Notes under the pieces: generated by a model | What the model saw: only the letters and a program-made list of their open reading frames with translations | What the model was told of the DNA's origin: nothing | Database searches by the model: none | Made by a program: the position numbers and the translations under genes | Source of the DNA: a phage | Reading direction: 5' to 3' (one strand) | Sequence record: PX969468.1 | Length of the DNA: 64,000 nucleotides | Part shown: positions 56,471 through 62,825 of the stretch, one piece after another | How positions within the stretch are numbered: the stretch's first letter is position 1 | Layout: each line of letters opens with the position of its first letter

Positions 56471-56836
56471 ATGGAACAAATGAACGATCAAGCGTCGGTT
56501 GCGATGAACGAGCAAGAACAACCTCAAGAATTTTTCTTAGGGTTAAGTAAAGATCAAGTGTCTCTTCTGCTAGTGCTTTCTTCTTTCATGGGAAGACTTC
56601 AGGAGCTCACACAACAACCGGAGGCTGAACAATTATTTCAGGCTCTGCGTGAAGAAGAAAAATATCGTCGTTTGGACTATGCCTTAGGTTGGGTAGCTCA
56701 ACAACGAGATATGCTGATGGCCCTCTCTGGGACCACAAGTTTTGCAATGGGCCTGTTGGCTCAAGTTCAGGACAAATTAATTCAAGCAGGGTTTGCACAC
56801 ACGGCAAACACTAACGAAGAACAAGGAGACAAATAA
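56471..56836 (+). CDS. hypothetical protein
   Basis: 121-aa ORF with RBS (ggagattcc). Confidence 0.4.
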   Translation: MEQMNDQASVAMNEQEQPQEFFLGLSKDQVSLLLVLSSFMGRLQELTQQPEAEQLFQALREEEKYRRLDYALGWVAQQRDMLMALSGTTSFAMGLLAQVQDKLIQAGFAHTANTNEEQGDK

Positions 56837-58062
56837 TGAGCGTTATTCAACAATTCGCTAACCCGATGAATCCGCGTGAAACTGTTTTACTGGCTCACGG
56901 CATGATCAAGCGTGTTAGCATCAAGCCTATCAAAGGTGCTGATCCTACAACAGGTATTAAAACCACTGTGTGGCAAGGTAAGAAAATTGAGTCCAGCCAC
57001 ACCATCTCTTTACTGATTTCTGAACTGGATTCCTCTGATAACCTACTTCAAGGTGGTGAAGAAGTTTGGATCAGTATGGGCGATAAGCTGCTTAAACCGG
57101 GTCATCAAGACTCTGTCTCTGTTAAAATTGATGACAAGTGGGAAACCGTAACGCCAGGATGGATCGTAAATATCCCTTTGAAGGCAAACGAGCATAACGG
57201 TAAGACCTACTACAAAGGCTCACTGGCTAAGATGGTTAAGCTGGGTGCAGGAGAGGCTCCAGCAGCGACTCAGCAGCAAAAACCGCAACAAGGTGCACAA
57301 TCACAAGGCCAGAAGCAGAAACATCAGCAGAATGCCAATCAGGACGTTTTACGCATCTATGGTGATGTGACTCAGATTGTTGGCAACGTGGTTACTGTTA
57401 ATGACCACAAGATTGGCGAAGGTGCTATGGTTGTAACTGATGAGCAGCTTAAAGACCTGGTGGTAGGTGGTCGTGTTGCAGCCATTGTTGACAAAGACAC
57501 CGGAAACATTATCAGTGGTTTCAAGGCCTATCCTCCTAAGGCAGAGAACGGCACTCAAGGCTCTGGTGGCAAGCGTAAATCCTCTTACGACCCTATCGGT
57601 GTGGAAACGGGGCATAGCATCAATGCGTTGCAAATCATCCTGGATCGCGGGTTTAAGGTAGACGACCCACTAGGAGTGGCTAAAACACTACACGTAGTCA
57701 CTATTGAGCTTAAGAAAGAGTATGCTCAAGCCACCAACCGAACTGAAGATGAAGTAGGTGCCAGTGTCGGTAATGCGGTGTTGAACGCTTGTCGCCGTAT
57801 TGACAAGAAAACGAAAGTTGATGATTTTGCAGCGGCAATTACTGCAGAAGCAAAAGATGTCTTGACTAATCTGGCTGAGCCGTTGTACGATTGGATCAAG
57901 AACGGTGCTGGGTCAACTGACCATCAAGAACCTCAGGCTGCCAAACAGGAAGCAGCTCCACAGCAAAACACTGTAGACGCTCCTCCTGTAAATGATGAGG
58001 AAGATGACCCAATGGATCAGAATCCAGCACAGTATGAGTTCGATGACTCGATCCCCTTCTGA
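56836..58062 (+). CDS. single-stranded DNA-binding protein-like (SSB-type acidic C-terminal tip)
   Basis: Gln/Gly-rich linker then acidic tail ending DEEDDPMDQNPAQYEFDDSIPF, resembling canonical SSB DDDIPF tip; sits in replication module. Confidence 0.5.
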   Translation: MSVIQQFANPMNPRETVLLAHGMIKRVSIKPIKGADPTTGIKTTVWQGKKIESSHTISLLISELDSSDNLLQGGEEVWISMGDKLLKPGHQDSVSVKIDDKWETVTPGWIVNIPLKANEHNGKTYYKGSLAKMVKLGAGEAPAATQQQKPQQGAQSQGQKQKHQQNANQDVLRIYGDVTQIVGNVVTVNDHKIGEGAMVVTDEQLKDLVVGGRVAAIVDKDTGNIISGFKAYPPKAENGTQGSGGKRKSSYDPIGVETGHSINALQIILDRGFKVDDPLGVAKTLHVVTIELKKEYAQATNRTEDEVGASVGNAVLNACRRIDKKTKVDDFAAAITAEAKDVLTNLAEPLYDWIKNGAGSTDHQEPQAAKQEAAPQQNTVDAPPVNDEEDDPMDQNPAQYEFDDSIPF

Positions 58063-58070
58063 GTCCAGTT

Positions 58071-58649
58071 ATGAAATGCAAACGTTGTGGGGAGGACAAG
58101 GAGGCCTCCGACTTCTATACCAGCAACAAATCAACGTGCAAAGAGTGTTGCAAGAAGGCCAGTAGAGAGTCTGACCAATTTGCTAGAGACTCTTCAGAAA
58201 AAGGTGTAATACGCGTGTTGTACAAGGCTCAAAAGTGCAACAGCAAGCAAAGAGGTCACCCTCCTCCGACTTACACCAAGAAAGAGTTTAAGGATTGGCT
58301 ATACCTAAACGGTTACAAAGAGTTGTATGACCAATGGGTAGCCAGCGGATACGACAAAAGGAAAAAGCCTTCTTGTGACAGGATAGATGATTTCAAAGGA
58401 TACTCTTTTGATAATATCCGTTTAACGACTTGGGGAGAAAATAAAGACAAGCAGACAGAGGATATTCTATTGCATAGAAGCACCAGCGGTAGACGGTGTA
58501 AAAACGTAAGAAGGCTGGACAGGAATGGCAACATTCTCAAAGAGTGGGTATCTCACAACTCTTGTAGGAGAGAAACCGGAATATGTGTTGATTACTACAT
58601 TCATGAAAAAATTCCAGCCCCCGATGGGTACTTCTATGAATACTTTTAA
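58071..58649 (+). CDS. HNH_3-like endonuclease-family protein (zinc ribbon plus HNH-like motif with Arg at first His position)
   Basis: CKRCG...CKECC zinc ribbon; PSCDRIDDFKGYSFDNIRLTTWGENKDK resembles the HNH_3 core. Confidence 0.4.
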   Translation: MKCKRCGEDKEASDFYTSNKSTCKECCKKASRESDQFARDSSEKGVIRVLYKAQKCNSKQRGHPPPTYTKKEFKDWLYLNGYKELYDQWVASGYDKRKKPSCDRIDDFKGYSFDNIRLTTWGENKDKQTEDILLHRSTSGRRCKNVRRLDRNGNILKEWVSHNSCRRETGICVDYYIHEKIPAPDGYFYEYF

Positions 58650-58664
58650 CACCTAGTTAACATA

Positions 58665-58693
58665 GCCCTGCCCGAAAGGGTGGGGCATTTTTG
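58665..58693 (+). terminator. rho-independent terminator, second copy of the 47668 hairpin
   Basis: gccctgccc-gaaa-gggtggggc then atttttg; same flanking context (aacac..tag upstream, aggaga RBS downstream). Confidence 0.6.
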
Positions 58694-58711: not shown

Positions 58712-59128
58712 ATGACATTAGAAGATATCATTGTTAAACCTGAGAACTATAACCAATACAATCTATCAACCCAATCTGTGGACCTTGGATGCGCCACTGT
58801 CAGTGCGTGGCTGGTTAACGGAAAAGAGTTGGATAAATGCTTAGAAGCTCACATGACTGTGAACAAGTTCCTTGATGAAAATACTCACTGGCTGGAAGGT
58901 GCAGGTGTATACGCTTCGTGGCTAGAGAGTATGGGATTTGACTACCAATCTGAAGAGGGGTGGTGGAGCTATCTGGCTATCTGTCCAGAGACATTGCAAT
59001 GCTTCATGAAATATTCTGAAGATTTGGAGTACCGGGCGGTGGTTGACAGTGCTATTGCTCGTTATAGCCGTAAACCTTTTTCCCACGACATTAAAACTGT
59101 GGAAGAATTTGTTGAAGTTTTCTGTTGA
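58712..59128 (+). CDS. hypothetical protein
   Basis: 138-aa ORF after RBS (taaggagatc). Confidence 0.4.
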   Translation: MTLEDIIVKPENYNQYNLSTQSVDLGCATVSAWLVNGKELDKCLEAHMTVNKFLDENTHWLEGAGVYASWLESMGFDYQSEEGWWSYLAICPETLQCFMKYSEDLEYRAVVDSAIARYSRKPFSHDIKTVEEFVEVFC

Positions 59129-59224
59129 CACAGGTTGTAAGGTGTGCAATTATAACCTTGTAGAGCTGGAGGATGTGATGAACGAAGAAAACTGGGATGT
59201 GTAACTAACAGGAGGCCACTGCCC

Positions 59225-59422
59225 ATGATTTATCGAATCCGTGTGAGAGAAGATGCACCAGGTTGTTACTTTGACTGGCGTGGGTGGTGGTTTCTCCACC
59301 CAATGGATGGACTCACAGATAGAATGCTGGATGCTGCCCTTTACACAGATACCGACATAGAGTATAATCTTTACTTGAAAGATGGTATCGATAACGGCCT
59401 GTTTGAAGCAATTCCTGCGTAA
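59225..59422 (+). CDS. hypothetical small protein
   Basis: 65-aa ORF with RBS (caggagg). Confidence 0.3.
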   Translation: MIYRIRVREDAPGCYFDWRGWWFLHPMDGLTDRMLDAALYTDTDIEYNLYLKDGIDNGLFEAIPA

Positions 59423-59487
59423 GAGAATGTGATCGCCATGTTTTATGATCTTCCTGTAGCACCACCTATTGATCCTGGAGAACTACG

Positions 59488-59907
59488 ATGATTTATGAAA
59501 TGCCAAAATTGATCCGTGACGATGCCCAAAACCACACCATTATTATGGGTAAACGCATGAATATCCTTTGCCGTAACGATTTCTGTGGTGTAGAATACGT
59601 TGCAGACTACTTCGGTGAGAATGGTAAACACCCTGTTCAGTTCTTCCTTGACCATGAGGATAACATTATCTGGGAGTTTGAAACTGAAGATATCCGCAAC
59701 CTCTTCATCTTCCTCGGTGTCAAGGTTAAGGCCAATTTCGCGGAAGGTGAGTGCGACGATTGTGGATTTTATGAGGTGACAGACTTCTATCTCCCGAGTG
59801 GCAAGAACCTTTACTATGAGAGTCACTTCGGAAACACCAACATGCCTCAAAGCTGGGAAGAATTTTTCAGTATCGTAGAAGAGGAGCTGGCATACCGTGA
59901 TTATTGA
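59488..59907 (+). CDS. hypothetical protein
   Basis: 139-aa ORF. Confidence 0.4.
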   Translation: MIYEMPKLIRDDAQNHTIIMGKRMNILCRNDFCGVEYVADYFGENGKHPVQFFLDHEDNIIWEFETEDIRNLFIFLGVKVKANFAEGECDDCGFYEVTDFYLPSGKNLYYESHFGNTNMPQSWEEFFSIVEEELAYRDY

Positions 59908-60355
59908 TACTGTAAAGGGAGATTTAATCTCCCTTTTTAAGAGCGGTGCTGGTCACCTAATCCACGGTTGTAACTGCTTCCACACAATGGGTAAGGGCAT
60001 AGCAAAACAGATTGCCCGTGAGTTTCCTCAAGCATTGTCAGCCGACAAAGAGACCAGACACGGTTGCCTAAGTAAACTGGGTGCGTTCTCCCGATGGGAG
60101 CACTTATCTCCGAGAGGTATTGTCTACGGAATCAATCTGTATACTCAGTTCTACCCAGGGCCTAATGCTGAATATTTCTCAATCCTGAAAGGCTTTGAGC
60201 TAGTCAATGAGGTATTCGAGGGATCGACTTTACCATTCTACATCCCTAAGATCGGATGCGGTATAGGCGGTTTGAAGTGGGAGCACGTAGAGGACGTTAT
60301 TAACCTCGCCACTTTTGATATAGATATTATCGTGGTGGAGTACAAAGAGTGTTGA
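59897..60355 (+). CDS. macro-domain protein (ADP-ribose-binding/processing fold)
   Basis: GHLIHGCNCFHTMGKGIAKQI matches macro-domain Gly-rich loop 1; LPFYIPKIGCGIGGLKWE matches second loop; GTG start after GAGGAG. Confidence 0.55.
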   Translation: MIIDTVKGDLISLFKSGAGHLIHGCNCFHTMGKGIAKQIAREFPQALSADKETRHGCLSKLGAFSRWEHLSPRGIVYGINLYTQFYPGPNAEYFSILKGFELVNEVFEGSTLPFYIPKIGCGIGGLKWEHVEDVINLATFDIDIIVVEYKEC

Positions 60356-60380
60356 CAGCTGACTTTTGAGATGGTATAGT
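60352..60380 (+). promoter_or_regulatory. sigma70-like promoter TTGACA-N17-TATAGT
   Basis: ttgaca 60352-60357, tatagt 60375-60380. Confidence 0.5.
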
Positions 60381-60411
60381 CACCACAACGATTGAGAGAG
60401 GGAGCACCACT

Positions 60412-60612
60412 ATGGAGACTAAAATCTTAATTCTGGCTGTGATAGATACGACCGAAGGGGCCGTGTTCGAATCTGCAGGAGGGTATTTCTACCTGCCCTA
60501 CGGAAAAATAACTTCCGAACCGAGTAAAGATTCAATCCTTAAAGTGTTCCCTTGTGCTTTCTGGCTGGAGATTCTGGTAGAAGATTGCAGAGGATTGGGG
60601 AGAGAATTATGA
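60412..60612 (+). CDS. hypothetical small protein
   Basis: 66-aa ORF after RBS (agagggag). Confidence 0.3.
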   Translation: METKILILAVIDTTEGAVFESAGGYFYLPYGKITSEPSKDSILKVFPCAFWLEILVEDCRGLGREL

Positions 60613-60803
60613 GAAACAAGAAAGAGCTTTACTCTGGCGAGTGGATCAACGATCAACAGGTCGGAGAGGTAACCTGCTTCCGGTGTTTTACTCGGTACAA
60701 TCTTAAAACTGCACCAAAAAGTGTTCCAAAGACTGACGGTTATTACATAAAAGAACCTCATTGCCCAAAATGTAAATGCCGATTGTACTGGAGCAATCTA
60801 TAA
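60609..60803 (+). CDS. small zinc-ribbon protein
   Basis: ATG at 60609 after ggggagag; CFRCF...CPKCKC; ORF track start 60552. Confidence 0.35.
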   Translation: MRNKKELYSGEWINDQQVGEVTCFRCFTRYNLKTAPKSVPKTDGYYIKEPHCPKCKCRLYWSNL

Positions 60804-60807
60804 GAGG

Positions 60808-60835
60808 TTGACATCTGAAAACTGCAGTGTATAGT
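60808..60835 (+). promoter_or_regulatory. sigma70-like promoter TTGACA-N16-TATAGT
   Basis: ttgaca 60808-60813, tatagt 60830-60835. Confidence 0.5.
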
Positions 60836-60866
60836 ATACACATAAACTAACAGAGAGCGATGTATT

Positions 60867-61058
60867 ATGGTAATTTTTAACCGGGATGGTATCATAGTTA
60901 GACAGCACCCGTTCCTTGAATACTATCAAATTGAGCAATGGTGCTACGGGGATTGCAGTCACTCTTATGGGCAAAGTTGGGGATATCGCACAGTTTTTGA
61001 ATCAACAGACCTTGACAAAGTAAGACAGAAAGTTTTAGAACTTATTAACAACAAGTGA
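60867..61058 (+). CDS. hypothetical small protein
   Basis: 63-aa ORF. Confidence 0.3.
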   Translation: MVIFNRDGIIVRQHPFLEYYQIEQWCYGDCSHSYGQSWGYRTVFESTDLDKVRQKVLELINNK

Positions 61059-61068
61059 GTATCGTGCC

Positions 61069-61401
61069 ATGGTAACATTGGAAAGACGTAAAGCTATCGC
61101 CGCCACACTGGCAGACATCTTTTGGGATTGCAACTTAAAAGATACTCGAAATTGTGGCGCATCTGTAGATGTATTATTCCCACGGCCCACCATTGTTGCA
61201 ATGGGAAACCTGCTCGATGTGGTATATGGAGCATGGGACAAGGAAGGTGGATTCTATATCTGGCAACCTGACTACGGGACTTGGAAAGAGGTTAGTGGTT
61301 CTTCGGACTTCACTCCTGCAGTGGCTAAAATGGATAGCTGGAAAATCTATGTCGGTAACGACATGGAACTGAAAGGCGAAATTGTTTACTGGTTACCTTA
61401 A
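61069..61401 (+). CDS. hypothetical protein
   Basis: 110-aa ORF. Confidence 0.35.
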   Translation: MVTLERRKAIAATLADIFWDCNLKDTRNCGASVDVLFPRPTIVAMGNLLDVVYGAWDKEGGFYIWQPDYGTWKEVSGSSDFTPAVAKMDSWKIYVGNDMELKGEIVYWLP

Positions 61402-61422
61402 GAAAGTCCAGGAGATAAAGTT

Positions 61423-61668
61423 ATGAACAAAGGGTGGACATTTGTAGACGGCGTTAAAAACATGCCTCTAGGAAAGTATATTGTAGCCATGGCAGATGAG
61501 AATGGCAATGTGGATTTCGGAGCTTGCGAGGTTGTTCTTGCAGGATCTGGTAACTATGTGGACAAAACCGGGATAATTAACGGTCAGTTCTACTTTGATC
61601 ACAACCCTGTTGTAGCGTATATGGCTATGCCAGAGTTCAAGTTCCCAAAGGAGGGTGCAGATGTTTAA
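61423..61668 (+). CDS. hypothetical protein
   Basis: 81-aa ORF with RBS (caggagataaag). Confidence 0.35.
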   Translation: MNKGWTFVDGVKNMPLGKYIVAMADENGNVDFGACEVVLAGSGNYVDKTGIINGQFYFDHNPVVAYMAMPEFKFPKEGADV

Positions 61669-61858: not shown

Positions 61859-62181
61859 CAGAGATCATCGTTTCAACTGCAGGGTATGTATTCCTGACAA
61901 TCATTGCGCTGGCTATTCTGGTGGCGGTGTATGGATTTGTTATCCTGCCCATTCTTGAGACATTTAGTTTGTGTCGGTGTTGGAGAAAAGCTTACGGTCC
62001 ACAACCATGGAAGGACTGGCCCCACCTGGTGCGCTTAGCGTTCTCTTATGCTTACGATCACTCCAGCAGTGCATGCATAACCGGATACCACGCCCACAAC
62101 TGGAGCTGGGAAGGGTTGAGGAAATGGAATGTTACAAAGACCATACCTCTGCGCATGTACAAAGGAAAAAGGAGGGATTGA
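61855..62181 (+). CDS. small membrane protein
   Basis: N-terminal hydrophobic segment GYVFLTIIALAILVAVYGFVILPIL. Confidence 0.35.
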   Translation: MTEIIVSTAGYVFLTIIALAILVAVYGFVILPILETFSLCRCWRKAYGPQPWKDWPHLVRLAFSYAYDHSSSACITGYHAHNWSWEGLRKWNVTKTIPLRMYKGKRRD

Positions 62182-62825
62182 TGGGGATACCTGTTAAAGA
62201 CAGAAAAATATGTGGTCGTGGAGTAAACGATTTAAAAGACAAAGTCCCAATGTACCAATCTGTTAATGGTAAGAGAGTACCAGAACCTCACTATGCTACA
62301 TGGAAAGCATTATTCCAGAGGTGCTACGGCGATAACTCAAAGTACCATACAGGTTGTGAAGTTGTAGAAGATTGGTGGTTGTTCTCAGAATTCTGGAAAT
62401 GGATGGATACACAAGAGTGGAAAAGAGACGCTAAGAAGTTCACTCTTGACAAAGACCTGAAAATCCCCGGAAACAGAATATACTCCCCAGAAACATGTAT
62501 GTTTGTTCCACCACAAATAAACACCTTATTTGGCATAAGACAGGCAGCACGAGGGGATTTACCTTTGGGTGTGACACTTAGAAAAGATGTAAACAAGTAT
62601 CTCGTGCATTGTCATCAAGATGGAAAAATTGTTCATGGTGGTCATTTCGATGATCCGCAGATAGCACACAAGGTGTGGCAAGAAATGAAACTTGAGGAGA
62701 TGAAGCTTCAAGCTATTAAAAACAAAGATGAGATTTGGCTGTTCGCCATTAAACGTGCAATAACTATCCTTGAGAATGATTTGAAAAATAATAAGGAGAC
62801 TATAACATTGGTGAAATTTATTTAA
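62181..62825 (+). CDS. AP2-domain protein, homing-endonuclease-like architecture
   Basis: ATG at 62181 after AAAGGAGGGA (ATGA overlap); C-terminal AP2-like segment GVTLRKDVNKYLVHCHQDGKIVHGGHFDDPQIAHKVWQE; upstream part of the 61971 ORF judged non-coding. Confidence 0.45.
   Translation: MGIPVKDRKICGRGVNDLKDKVPMYQSVNGKRVPEPHYATWKALFQRCYGDNSKYHTGCEVVEDWWLFSEFWKWMDTQEWKRDAKKFTLDKDLKIPGNRIYSPETCMFVPPQINTLFGIRQAARGDLPLGVTLRKDVNKYLVHCHQDGKIVHGGHFDDPQIAHKVWQEMKLEEMKLQAIKNKDEIWLFAIKRAITILENDLKNNKETITLVKFI

Follow-up and report, generated by a model that had tools for sequence, protein, structure and literature searches.

The 64,000-nucleotide stretch of phage DNA analysed here (PX969468.1; the window) encodes a 152-residue protein which had been predicted, from the letters of the sequence, to be a macrodomain that might counter host defence or process ADP-ribose. 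Two questions arise from this locus: whether the protein is a macrodomain at all and, if so, on which ADP-ribose-containing substrate it would act.

The open reading frame lies on the + strand at 59897..60355, the coordinates first given for it, with a GTG start codon and a TGA stop codon. A Shine-Dalgarno-like GAGGAG, found by direct reading of the sequence, is located 10 nt 5' of the GTG (59881..59886, + strand). A 459-nt coding sequence with the identical GTG start is annotated likewise in phages ECP32, FFH2 and MaxTheCat, and the window gene is DNA-identical to bas57_0089 of MaxTheCat. The window comes from a Vequintavirus, one of the rV5-like phages of E. coli.

Pfam Macro (PF01661) matched the protein with 28.5 bits (E = 1.6e-6), which passes the gathering cutoff of 22. 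The best-scoring stretch of this match spans profile positions 1-32 of 118 only, so the protein is strongly divergent from the Pfam model. The match to PHROG 335, on the other hand, covered residues 1-151 (E = 2.9e-60). An AlphaFold2 model (pLDDT 96.6, pTM 0.91) has the three-layer alpha/beta/alpha macrodomain fold with two glycine-rich ADP-ribose-binding loops, and over 50 solved macrodomains matched it in Foldseek with a probability of 1.00. Both loops quoted in the original prediction are present in the open reading frame, on the + strand: the first, HGCNCFHTMGKGIAKQI, comprises residues 23-39 (H23-I39; 59963..60013), and the second, the diphosphate-binding loop IPKIGCGIGGL, comprises I116-L126 (60242..60274). 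The protein is thus a genuine macrodomain, a call upheld, well above chance expectation, by profile, structure and family evidence together.

The structural and sequence matches also place it within the macrodomains. The top structural match was human TARG1/OARD1 (PDB 4j5r; E = 6e-10, TM 0.78, rmsd 2.6 Å over the whole protein), accompanied by Poa1p (TM 0.69-0.74), the DarG proteins of Thermus aquaticus (Taq) and M. tuberculosis (Mtb), BT1257 and SCO6735. Viral and MacroD-type macrodomains ranked lower, viral and macroH2A/Af1521-type relatives giving E = 1e-6 to 1e-5 and TM 0.56-0.69. A search of the PDB with the family profile returned the same TARG1/Poa1p/DarG/BT1257/SCO6735 set, with E values from 2e-19 to 2e-14, and the sole match in both PADLOC and NCBIfam was a DarG model. 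Comparison with the MacroD and YmdB families had been suggested alongside the original prediction, but the protein belongs instead to the TARG1/DarG/SCO6735/Poa1p (ALC1-like) class. MacroD and YmdB enzymes carry the catalytic motifs N-x6-GG-[VLI]-D and G-[VIA]-[YF]-G. Neither motif is found in the window protein, which has N26-CFHTM-GKG-IA, the Asp of MacroD being replaced by an invariant Ala36, and whose second loop reads G-I-G-G, lacking the aromatic residue.

The active site was examined by alignment. Asn26 (codon 59972-59974) is present in all 118 aligned homologs and aligns with N22 of TaqDarG, N23 of PhiKZ AdfM and N27 of SCO6735. Gln84 (codon 60146..60148, + strand), within the motif N80-L-Y-T-Q84, is present in 116 of 117 aligned homologs. 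It corresponds to Q85 of SCO6735 in the profile and MAFFT alignments, and to the Mtb DarG lysine in a pairwise alignment. BT1257 also has Gln at this position, which is occupied by the catalytic lysine in TARG1 (K84), DarG (K80) and PhiKZ AdfM (K78). His23 aligns with SCO6735 H24, and G120 and G122 with its G126 and G128; G24, G34 and A36 are invariant in the family. Lys33 aligns with SCO6735 K34 and is not conserved: T4 has Ser at this position, and most family members have Ala. In the profile alignment Gly124 falls at the position of TARG1 Asp125 ('GCGIG' against 'GCGLD'), so the second loop has no Asp. The sequence thus has Gln in place of the catalytic Lys of DarG and TARG1 together with a conserved Asn, which is the arrangement of SCO6735.

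SCO6735 cleaves thymidine-linked ADP-ribose from ssDNA and is inactivated by Q85A and N27S mutations; its Q85 is positioned by the conserved Asn N27 (PMC9411070). Thymidine-ADPr hydrolysis is common to TaqDarG, TARG1, fly Targ1/3 and SCO6735, with MACROD1 and PARP9/14 MD1 being inactive (PMC12879935). Since the catalytic lysine of DarG and TARG1 is absent from the window protein, its proposed activity follows by analogy from one characterised Gln-type enzyme.

The closest functional precedent comes from phage T4. The window gene is a member of the Tk.4/AdfM family by full-length homology: in a tblastn comparison 99% of the length aligned with T4 Tk.4 at 39.9% identity (E = 1e-31), and Tk.4 of RB49 is 69.5% identical. 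The family, PHROG 335, comprises some 2,800 phage records from many lineages, and its invariant residues G24, N26, G34, A36, N80, Q84 and G120 are all found in the window protein and in the Tk.4 proteins of T4 and RB49. The window protein and T4 Tk.4 are both single macrodomains of about 152-155 residues and have the motifs HGCNCFHTMG-G-A, NLYTQF-PGPN and P-IG-GIG in common. A transposon screen of T4 gave only one significant DarTG2-dependent hit, tk.4, and a clean knockout sensitised the phage to DarTG2; Tk.4 was hence named AdfM, for anti-DarT factor Macrodomain (10.1101/2025.11.20.689424). This evidence is genetic, comes from a preprint (HIDEN-SEQ) and concerns a homolog just 40% identical to the window protein; within the family, protection from DarTG2 is known for T4 alone. 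The anti-defence reading of the original prediction is nevertheless supported, by analogy with a full-length homolog. The likely substrate, on the same analogy, is thymidine-linked ADP-ribose on ssDNA, rather than protein ADP-ribose or a signalling nucleotide, and the suggestion that the protein degrades ADP-ribose-derived signals found no support. The window protein adds a member to a family recognised only recently; it is not a new kind of system.

Among characterised enzymes the closest in active-site arrangement are SCO6735 from S. coelicolor (PDB 5e3b) and BT1257 from B. thetaiotaomicron (PDB 2fg1/2afc), the latter being the best profile match of the window family (E = 2e-19). All three proteins are stand-alone and ALC1-like with Gln at the Lys position, and His, Asn and the Gly-Cys-Gly loop residues of the window protein are like those of SCO6735. 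Identity to the two is only about 26%, however, and both are cellular proteins, SCO6735 being DNA-damage inducible. Their motif is NMIGQH, in contrast to NLYTQF in the window protein, and the 5-6-residue insertion that follows the Gln in both is missing from it. The mobile loop of SCO6735 is five residues longer than that of DarG or TARG1, and its Lys89 contacts the diphosphate (and DNA). In the alignments the window protein has no such extended loop; its short 'FYPGPNAEY' contains no Lys.

DarG of the DarTG2 system (Mtb, PDB 5m3i; T. aquaticus, PDB 5m31/5m3e) is of the same class, shares the Asn (N22) and both glycine loops, and is the best single-sequence PDB match (E = 8e-8); by analogy the window protein would be expected to have the same activity on ADP-ribosylated thymidine in ssDNA. 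It ends after the macrodomain, however, and lacks the C-terminal DarT-binding domain. The PADLOC DarG model matched over positions 3-141 of 329, and the DarG equivalog NF048014 (NCBIfam), whose cutoff is 250 bits, scored 48.5 bits, over profile positions 2-143 of 338 only. In both pairwise and multiple alignments the DarG catalytic lysine (TaqDarG K80) is replaced by Gln84. No darT gene lies beside the macrodomain gene, whose neighbours are small phage ORFs and a homing endonuclease. TARG1 is the same size as the window protein and shares the H...MG-GIA and PRIGCG motifs, but it is a eukaryotic enzyme whose substrates include Glu/Asp-linked protein ADP-ribose as well as T-ADPr DNA. Its catalytic dyad Lys84/Asp125 is absent from the window protein, which has Gln84/Gly124 in the profile alignment.

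An orphan phage macrodomain with the predicted activity has already been described. PhiKZ gp104, the chimallivirus AdfM, confers protection from DarTG2, and in vitro it strips T-ADPr off ssDNA (PMC13309987). The two phage proteins belong to separate lineages and are 25% identical to each other. The PhiKZ protein shares 40% identity with Mtb DarG and reaches 133 bits with the PADLOC DarG model, against 27% and 51 bits for the window ORF; it also retains the catalytic Lys (K78), enters the phage nucleus and is expressed late. This suggests that 'AdfM' now names two separate macrodomain lineages.

The genomic context was also analysed. The macrodomain gene is in a genome arm shared with the helicase/primase and DNA polymerase. 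Its start overlaps by 11 nt the end of an upstream 139-residue ORF (59488..59907, + strand), identified from the ORF list and assigned to phrog_8157, so translational coupling would be possible; the two genes are probably co-transcribed. T4 tk.4 likewise overlaps the stop codon of the gene upstream, although T4 belongs to the Straboviridae and not the Vequintavirinae, and the neighbourhoods differ. In both T4 and RB49 the gene preceding tk.4 is vs. The upstream ORF of the window was considered as a homolog of T4 Vs and rejected (BLASTP E = 0.057 over 15 residues), which leaves no conserved vs-macrodomain gene pair. No ADP-ribosyltransferase, NADAR, Tpt1 or NAD-salvage partner was found when ten neighbouring ORFs were searched against PHROGs and six against Pfam; apart from one homing endonuclease, these ORFs matched families of unknown function or nothing. 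Pfam and PDB sequence searches with a 408-residue SSB-tail protein were both negative.

The gene had been assigned to an early sigma70 promoter cluster. Between 52 and 64 kb, 36 sigma70-like sites were counted against 22.2 ± 4.9 in shuffled sequences, and of the twelve listed sites that score 10/12 or more, ten belong to the coding (+) strand. A candidate promoter (TTTACA-17-TATAAT, 11/12; 59340..59368, + strand) lies 5' of the two-gene unit that ends with the macrodomain gene. A second (TTGACA-17-TATAGT with a TG extension, 11/12; 60352..60380, + strand) overlaps the macrodomain stop codon and would serve the next small ORF. Both candidates are consensus matches only. Early expression is predicted from such matches.

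The macrodomain gene is under purifying selection, with dN/dS values of 0.15-0.22. It is also dispensable and behaves as an accessory gene. The Bas54 ortholog, bas54_0092, was hit at 31 of 31 TA sites and is non-essential on E. coli K-12, and a deletion or a frameshift affects the gene in two related genomes. The deletion in variant L007 has removed part of the upstream 139-residue ORF together with the N-terminal half of the macrodomain gene.

Taken with the T4 precedent, these observations make it probable, though some way from certain, that the protein is a stand-alone ADP-ribosyl glycohydrolase of the TARG1/DarG/SCO6735 class and the Tk.4/AdfM family, which undoes thymidine ADP-ribosylation of phage ssDNA by DarT2. 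The gene would probably be expressed early from host-type promoters. Infection would free the host toxin DarT2, which would add ADP-ribose to thymidines of single-stranded phage DNA and so block replication. The two glycine-rich loops of the phage macrodomain may then hold the ADP-ribose, with Asn26 and Gln84 positioning the distal ribose, and the N-glycosidic bond would be hydrolysed in a lysine-independent, water-mediated reaction such as has been proposed for SCO6735. Unmodified thymidine would be regained and replication could proceed. The phage macrodomain would, in effect, be an orphan enzymatic 'antitoxin' without the toxin-binding domain of DarG. Other Vequintavirinae encode a NADAR anti-DarT1 factor (PMC11825919), which shows that this subfamily is under pressure from DarTG systems.

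The possibility that the protein hydrolyses a small ADP-ribose metabolite was also considered. It could be a Poa1p-like ADP-ribose-1''-phosphate phosphatase, or it could deacetylate O-acetyl-ADP-ribose made by the phage's own Sir2-like enzyme. Poa1p ranks among the best matches in both sequence and structure, and its H23 and S30, which are mutated in deposited structures (PDB 6lfs and 6lft), align with H23 and T30 of the window protein if a 3-residue tag offset is assumed; because this similarity is equally strong, a small-molecule substrate has some claim to consideration. TARG1 has the alias O-acetyl-ADP-ribose deacetylase 1, and databases tag the family 'phosphatase' or 'A1pp phosphatase motif', but this label seems to derive from an old domain name (Appr-1-p processing) and not from any assay of a phage protein, and is probably misleading for the Tk.4 family. 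The full annotation of the related phage FFH2 lists a Sir2-like protein, an Rnl1-like RNA ligase and a phosphoesterase. However, these genes are about 52 kb from the macrodomain gene and outside the window, the Sir2-like and RNA ligase genes in another transcription arm, and of the 60 rows sampled from the roughly 2,800 phage records, most list no partner of this kind under the match. T4-type tRNA repair is not known to leave a 2'-phosphate, and Appr-1''-p would then not be formed. As DarTG2 sensitivity is, moreover, the sole phenotype reported for a member of the family, we regard metabolite hydrolysis as distinctly unlikely. A different ADP-ribosylation might instead be reversed, on a protein or RNA target of another defence or toxin ADP-ribosyltransferase or on DNA modified by an enzyme other than DarT2, DarTG2 then not being the relevant target for a Vequintavirus. 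SCO6735 and TARG1 de-ADP-ribosylate proteins too (PMC9411070), specificity may have shifted given that the window protein is just 40% identical to T4 Tk.4, and the Bas54 ortholog was not depleted on a clinical isolate (a comparison in the supplement). This reading also seems unlikely: every family-invariant active-site position is common to the window protein and T4 Tk.4. T4 carries Tk.4 and still succumbs to CmdTAC, a defence system with an mRNA ADP-ribosyltransferase, so that RNA is not a likely substrate of the family. Macrodomains of this class have T-ADPr hydrolysis in common (PMC12879935), and guanosine-linked ADP-ribose is handled by NADAR enzymes and not by macrodomains (PMC11825919; 10.1101/2025.11.20.689424).

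A role without catalysis, either as an ADP-ribose-binding sponge for NAD-derived signals (gcADPR or His-ADPR of Thoeris) or as a stoichiometric inhibitor of DarT2, is very improbable. Macrodomains may serve as readers only, the window protein lacks the canonical catalytic Lys, the host ThsA of type II Thoeris binds His-ADPR through its macrodomain (10.64898/2026.06.04.730250), and the dead SCO6735 Q85A mutant still inhibits DarT in vitro (PMC9411070). However, Asn26 is fully and Gln84 nearly invariant, as is to be expected of the catalytic and positioning residues that are essential in SCO6735, and the C-terminal DarT-binding domain is absent. The Thoeris sponges (Tad proteins, Sequestin and RyR-Tad) are not described as macrodomains in 10.64898/2026.06.04.730250, a Thoeris/CBASS preprint whose own mentions of macrodomains concern the host ThsA effector and N4-like phages and were set aside as not relevant, and our literature search found no report of signal binding by the Tk.4/AdfM family.

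Hydrolysis of thymidine-linked ADP-ribose thus remains the preferred reading, and a more tentative proposal, which we hold to be possible but would not favour, concerns its origin. Tk.4-type macrodomains may represent a second, independent recruitment against DarT2, not from DarG but from stand-alone, Gln-type 'genome-guardian' macrodomains like SCO6735 and BT1257. Their catalysis would be lysine-independent and substrate- or water-assisted, and their range possibly broader (DNA and protein ADP-ribose) than that of the Lys-type PhiKZ AdfM. If this is true, the roughly 2,800 phage records would make the Tk.4 type the dominant natural form of anti-DarT2 counter-defence.

The invariant Gln in place of the catalytic Lys gives a concrete mechanistic point that ties a very large phage family to SCO6735. 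If the proposed function is correct, the Vequintavirinae would join the T-even phages and the chimalliviruses as carriers of an enzymatic anti-DarTG2 factor. rV5-like phages, which are therapy candidates, infect a broad range of hosts, and if the macrodomain removes DarT2-made ADP-ribose, its presence would help to predict which E. coli strains these phages can overcome.

The macro gene was found where the original prediction had placed it, at 59897..60355 on the + strand, with a GTG start and a product of 152 aa that contains both of the quoted macro motifs, HGCNCFHTMGKGIAKQI (residues 23-39) and IPKIGCGIGGL (residues 116-126). On the same strand a Shine-Dalgarno-like GAGGAG lies 10 nt upstream of the GTG, which overlaps the end of a preceding 139-aa ORF (+) by 11 nt, and three genomes of related phages have the 459-nt coding sequence annotated with the identical start. 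A 2.5-kb region containing the gene (window 59000-61500) matched 119 phage records, nearly all of them Vequintavirus (rV5-like) phages of E. coli at 80-97% identity. MaxTheCat, which is Bas57 in the BASEL collection, was the top match, and its bas57_0089 is 100% identical to the macro gene in DNA sequence. GenBank names for the product vary between "hypothetical protein", "macro domain protein" and "phosphatase". Sixteen unannotated "Campylobacter phage" records (e.g. MG065644.1, MG065690.1) are ~91.6% identical to the same 2.5 kb, and 15 of the 16 give C. jejuni as host; these are probably mislabelled or contaminant genomes.

The macrodomain call was confirmed by Pfam (Macro, 28.5 bits against a gathering cutoff of 22) and by PHROG 335 (E=2.9e-60). 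An AlphaFold2 model generated from 71 homologs had a pLDDT of 96.6 and a pTM of 0.91, and the closest solved structures according to Foldseek were TARG1 (E=6e-10, TM 0.78), Poa1p, the DarG proteins of T. aquaticus and M. tuberculosis, BT1257 and SCO6735, with viral macrodomains, macroH2A and Af1521 well down the ranking. Sequence searches of the PDB returned the same group: M. tuberculosis DarG was on top with the single sequence (E=8e-8), and BT1257 (E=2e-19) and SCO6735 (E=3e-17) with the family profile. DarG models were the sole match in both PADLOC and NCBIfam, only the macrodomain half being aligned, and the NCBIfam equivalog score of 48.5 bits is far under the 250-bit cutoff. Because of these profile, Foldseek, PDB, PADLOC and NCBIfam results, the protein is assigned to the TARG1/DarG/SCO6735/Poa1p (ALC1-like) class of macrodomains, as a stand-alone member. 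Of the MacroD, YmdB and DarG families proposed for comparison in the original prediction, the MacroD/YmdB type does not apply to this protein, and the DarG relationship holds for the macrodomain class and not for a DarG antitoxin, which is excluded by the half-length match and the low equivalog score.

Homologs were detected by tblastn in 2,812 phage records. T4 Tk.4 aligned by tblastn at 39.9% identity, with 99% of the length covered (E=1e-31). When a T4 transposon library was screened by sequencing on a host carrying DarTG2, tk.4 was the only significant hit and its clean knockout sensitised the phage to this defence system; on this genetic evidence the gene was renamed adfM, for anti-DarT factor Macrodomain (preprint 2025, 10.1101/2025.11.20.689424). 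Some GenBank annotations already name the macro domain, and a function had been published for a member of the family. Macrodomain class and homology to T4 Tk.4 together support, by analogy, the anti-defence role that had been proposed from the sequence, in the refined form given below.

Residues G24, N26, G34, A36, N80, Q84 and G120 are invariant in 71/71 aligned homologs, and when 120 homologs were retrieved N26 was present in 118/118 and Q84 in 116/117 aligned sequences. A consistent set of equivalences emerged from three kinds of alignment taken together: pairwise (HMMER, M. tuberculosis DarG), profile-based (BT1257, SCO6735 and TARG1) and multiple (MAFFT, eight sequences). N26 corresponds to N22 of DarG, N27 of SCO6735 and N23 of the PhiKZ macrodomain gp104, Q84 corresponds to Gln85 of SCO6735, a Gln in BT1257 and the catalytic Lys of TARG1 (K84), DarG (K80) and gp104 (K78), and Gly124 occupies the place of TARG1 Asp125. 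SCO6735 cleaves thymidine-linked ADPr-DNA despite missing the Lys/Asp residues; activity is abolished by Q85A and almost abolished by N27S, and it has been proposed that the Val25 backbone holds a water molecule while Gln85 positions the distal ribose (PMC9411070). Among the SCO6735 residues considered there, H24/N27/K34/Q85/G126/G128 are matched by identical residues in the phage protein (H23/N26/K33/Q84/G120/G122). K33 varies within the phage family, and the extended mobile loop of SCO6735 with G87 and K89 has no counterpart.

Thymidine-ADPr hydrolysis is common to TaqDarG, TARG1, fly Targ1/3 and SCO6735, whereas MACROD1, ARH1 and the PARP9/14 macrodomains do not act on this substrate (PMC12879935), so class membership predicts the activity. 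It is probable, on our assessment, that the gene encodes the Vequintavirus AdfM, an orphan enzymatic antitoxin. In a DarTG2-bearing host DarT2 would mark thymidine of single-stranded phage DNA with ADP-ribose, the macro protein would hydrolyse this adduct by a lysine-independent route using Asn26 and Gln84, and phage replication would thereby continue. Reversal of some other ADP-ribosylation, on protein, RNA or DNA, appears unlikely. Slightly less likely again is a small-molecule hydrolase, either a phosphatase acting on Appr-1''-p in the manner of Poa1p, itself among the structural neighbours, or an OAADPr deacetylase, possibly tied to a distant phage Sir2-like gene. A non-catalytic sponge or DarT2 binder is very improbable; N26 and Q84 are near-universal in the family.

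The behaviour of the gene is that expected of an accessory counter-defence gene, as it is conserved and constrained but not needed under laboratory conditions, and is now and then lost. Pairwise dN/dS against the ECP32 and FFH2 orthologs was 0.15-0.22, indicating purifying selection. Its Bas54 ortholog was taken by synteny to be bas54_0092 (gene by gene, Bas54 is laid out like Bas50, always shifted by 2 nt). This gene is classed as non-essential on E. coli K-12, with 31/31 TA sites hit, and was not depleted in the clinical-isolate comparison drawn from the supplement of this HIDEN-SEQ transposon screen (log2FC 0.42, q=1; 10.1101/2025.11.20.689424). The gene has been lost from two related genomes in public read archives, compared here over the region corresponding to window 59488-60355. 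In one (L007 2501-2866) a ~500 bp deletion joins the upstream ORF to the macro coding sequence from residue ~84 onward, removing N26; in the other, sequenced in two runs (L008 2501-2961, L009 820-1280), there is a 1-nt frameshift near codon 53, possibly an assembly error.

The gene lies ~5.5 kb downstream of the DNA polymerase gene on the same strand, in an arm ordered rIIB, helicase, methyltransferases, helicase/primase, DNA polymerase and then many small ORFs. As for the early sigma70 promoter cluster originally proposed, sigma70-like sites are indeed over-represented: the 52-64 kb interval has 36 (shuffles, 22.2 +/- 4.9), and most of them lie on the coding strand. Early expression is plausible, as a prediction from these sites. 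Consensus matches on the + strand at 59340-59368 and 60352-60380 respectively precede the two-gene unit of 139-aa ORF and macro gene and overlap the macro stop codon. The 408-aa protein encoded at 56836-58062 (+; phrog_4477, a family of unknown function) has a Q/P-rich linker and a C-terminus, ...YEFDDSIPF, resembling the acidic tip in which bacterial SSB ends (DDDIPF in E. coli). It may be a phage ssDNA-binding protein or SSB-tail mimic; Pfam gave no match and a PDB sequence search no meaningful one. Its ortholog bas54_0087 is classed as essential, with TA sites hit 8/57 (HIDEN-SEQ supplement, 10.1101/2025.11.20.689424). The 192-aa ORF at 58071-58649 (+; phrog_1035, "endonuclease VII", HNH-like), followed by a terminator-like hairpin (58665-58686), looks like a mobile homing endonuclease, and Bas54 has bas54_0088, "putative homing endonuclease", at the equivalent position. 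It is missing at this site in MaxTheCat, ECP32 and FFH2, so this phage differs from MaxTheCat, although the two macro genes are the same. A 284-aa ORF at 61971-62825 (+), for which the Pfam search found nothing and which corresponds in position to an unannotated gap of ECP32 (L001 15341-16206), could be a further mobile or accessory gene. No ADP-ribosyltransferase, NADAR or Tpt1 gene was found when ORFs neighbouring the macro gene were compared with PHROGs (ten ORFs) and Pfam (six). Bas60-62, other Vequintavirinae, carry NADAR anti-DarT1 factors, and the BASEL-collection search in the same study reported none for the Bas57 group (PMC11825919). Outside the window, Vequintaviruses have a gene cluster (in FFH2, NC_024134.1 65646-69498) with annotations for phosphoesterase, ATPase, Rnl1-like RNA ligase, Sir2-like NAD-dependent deacetylase and nucleotide pyrophosphohydrolase, near six tRNA genes and possibly serving RNA repair or an NAD-related function.

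RB49 Tk.4 is 69.5% identical to the macro protein, and its gene (L011 2001-2456) occupies the position that is conserved among T-even phages (regB, vs.1, vs, tk.4, ..., tk), with flanking genes different from those in Vequintavirus. This closeness to a T4-like Krischvirus (~70%, against 41% for T4 Tk.4) without shared flanks suggests horizontal transfer of the single gene between Krischvirus-like and rV5-like phages.

[quoted passage not shown] It is 40% identical to M. tuberculosis DarG, compared with 27% for our ORF and 28-30% for the Tk.4-type and Vequintavirus hits; it scores 133 bits with the PADLOC DarG model (our ORF 51, T4 Tk.4 36) and is a mere 25% identical to our ORF. By these comparisons T4 Tk.4 (Gln-type, genetic evidence) and PhiKZ gp104 (Lys-type, biochemical evidence) represent separate, non-orthologous lineages, and their common name may lead to confusion in annotation. 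Like SCO6735, the entire Tk.4 lineage is Gln-type, in contrast to PhiKZ AdfM and DarG, which are Lys-type. This point seems under-appreciated and suggests two independent recruitments of macrodomains, and a different chemistry.
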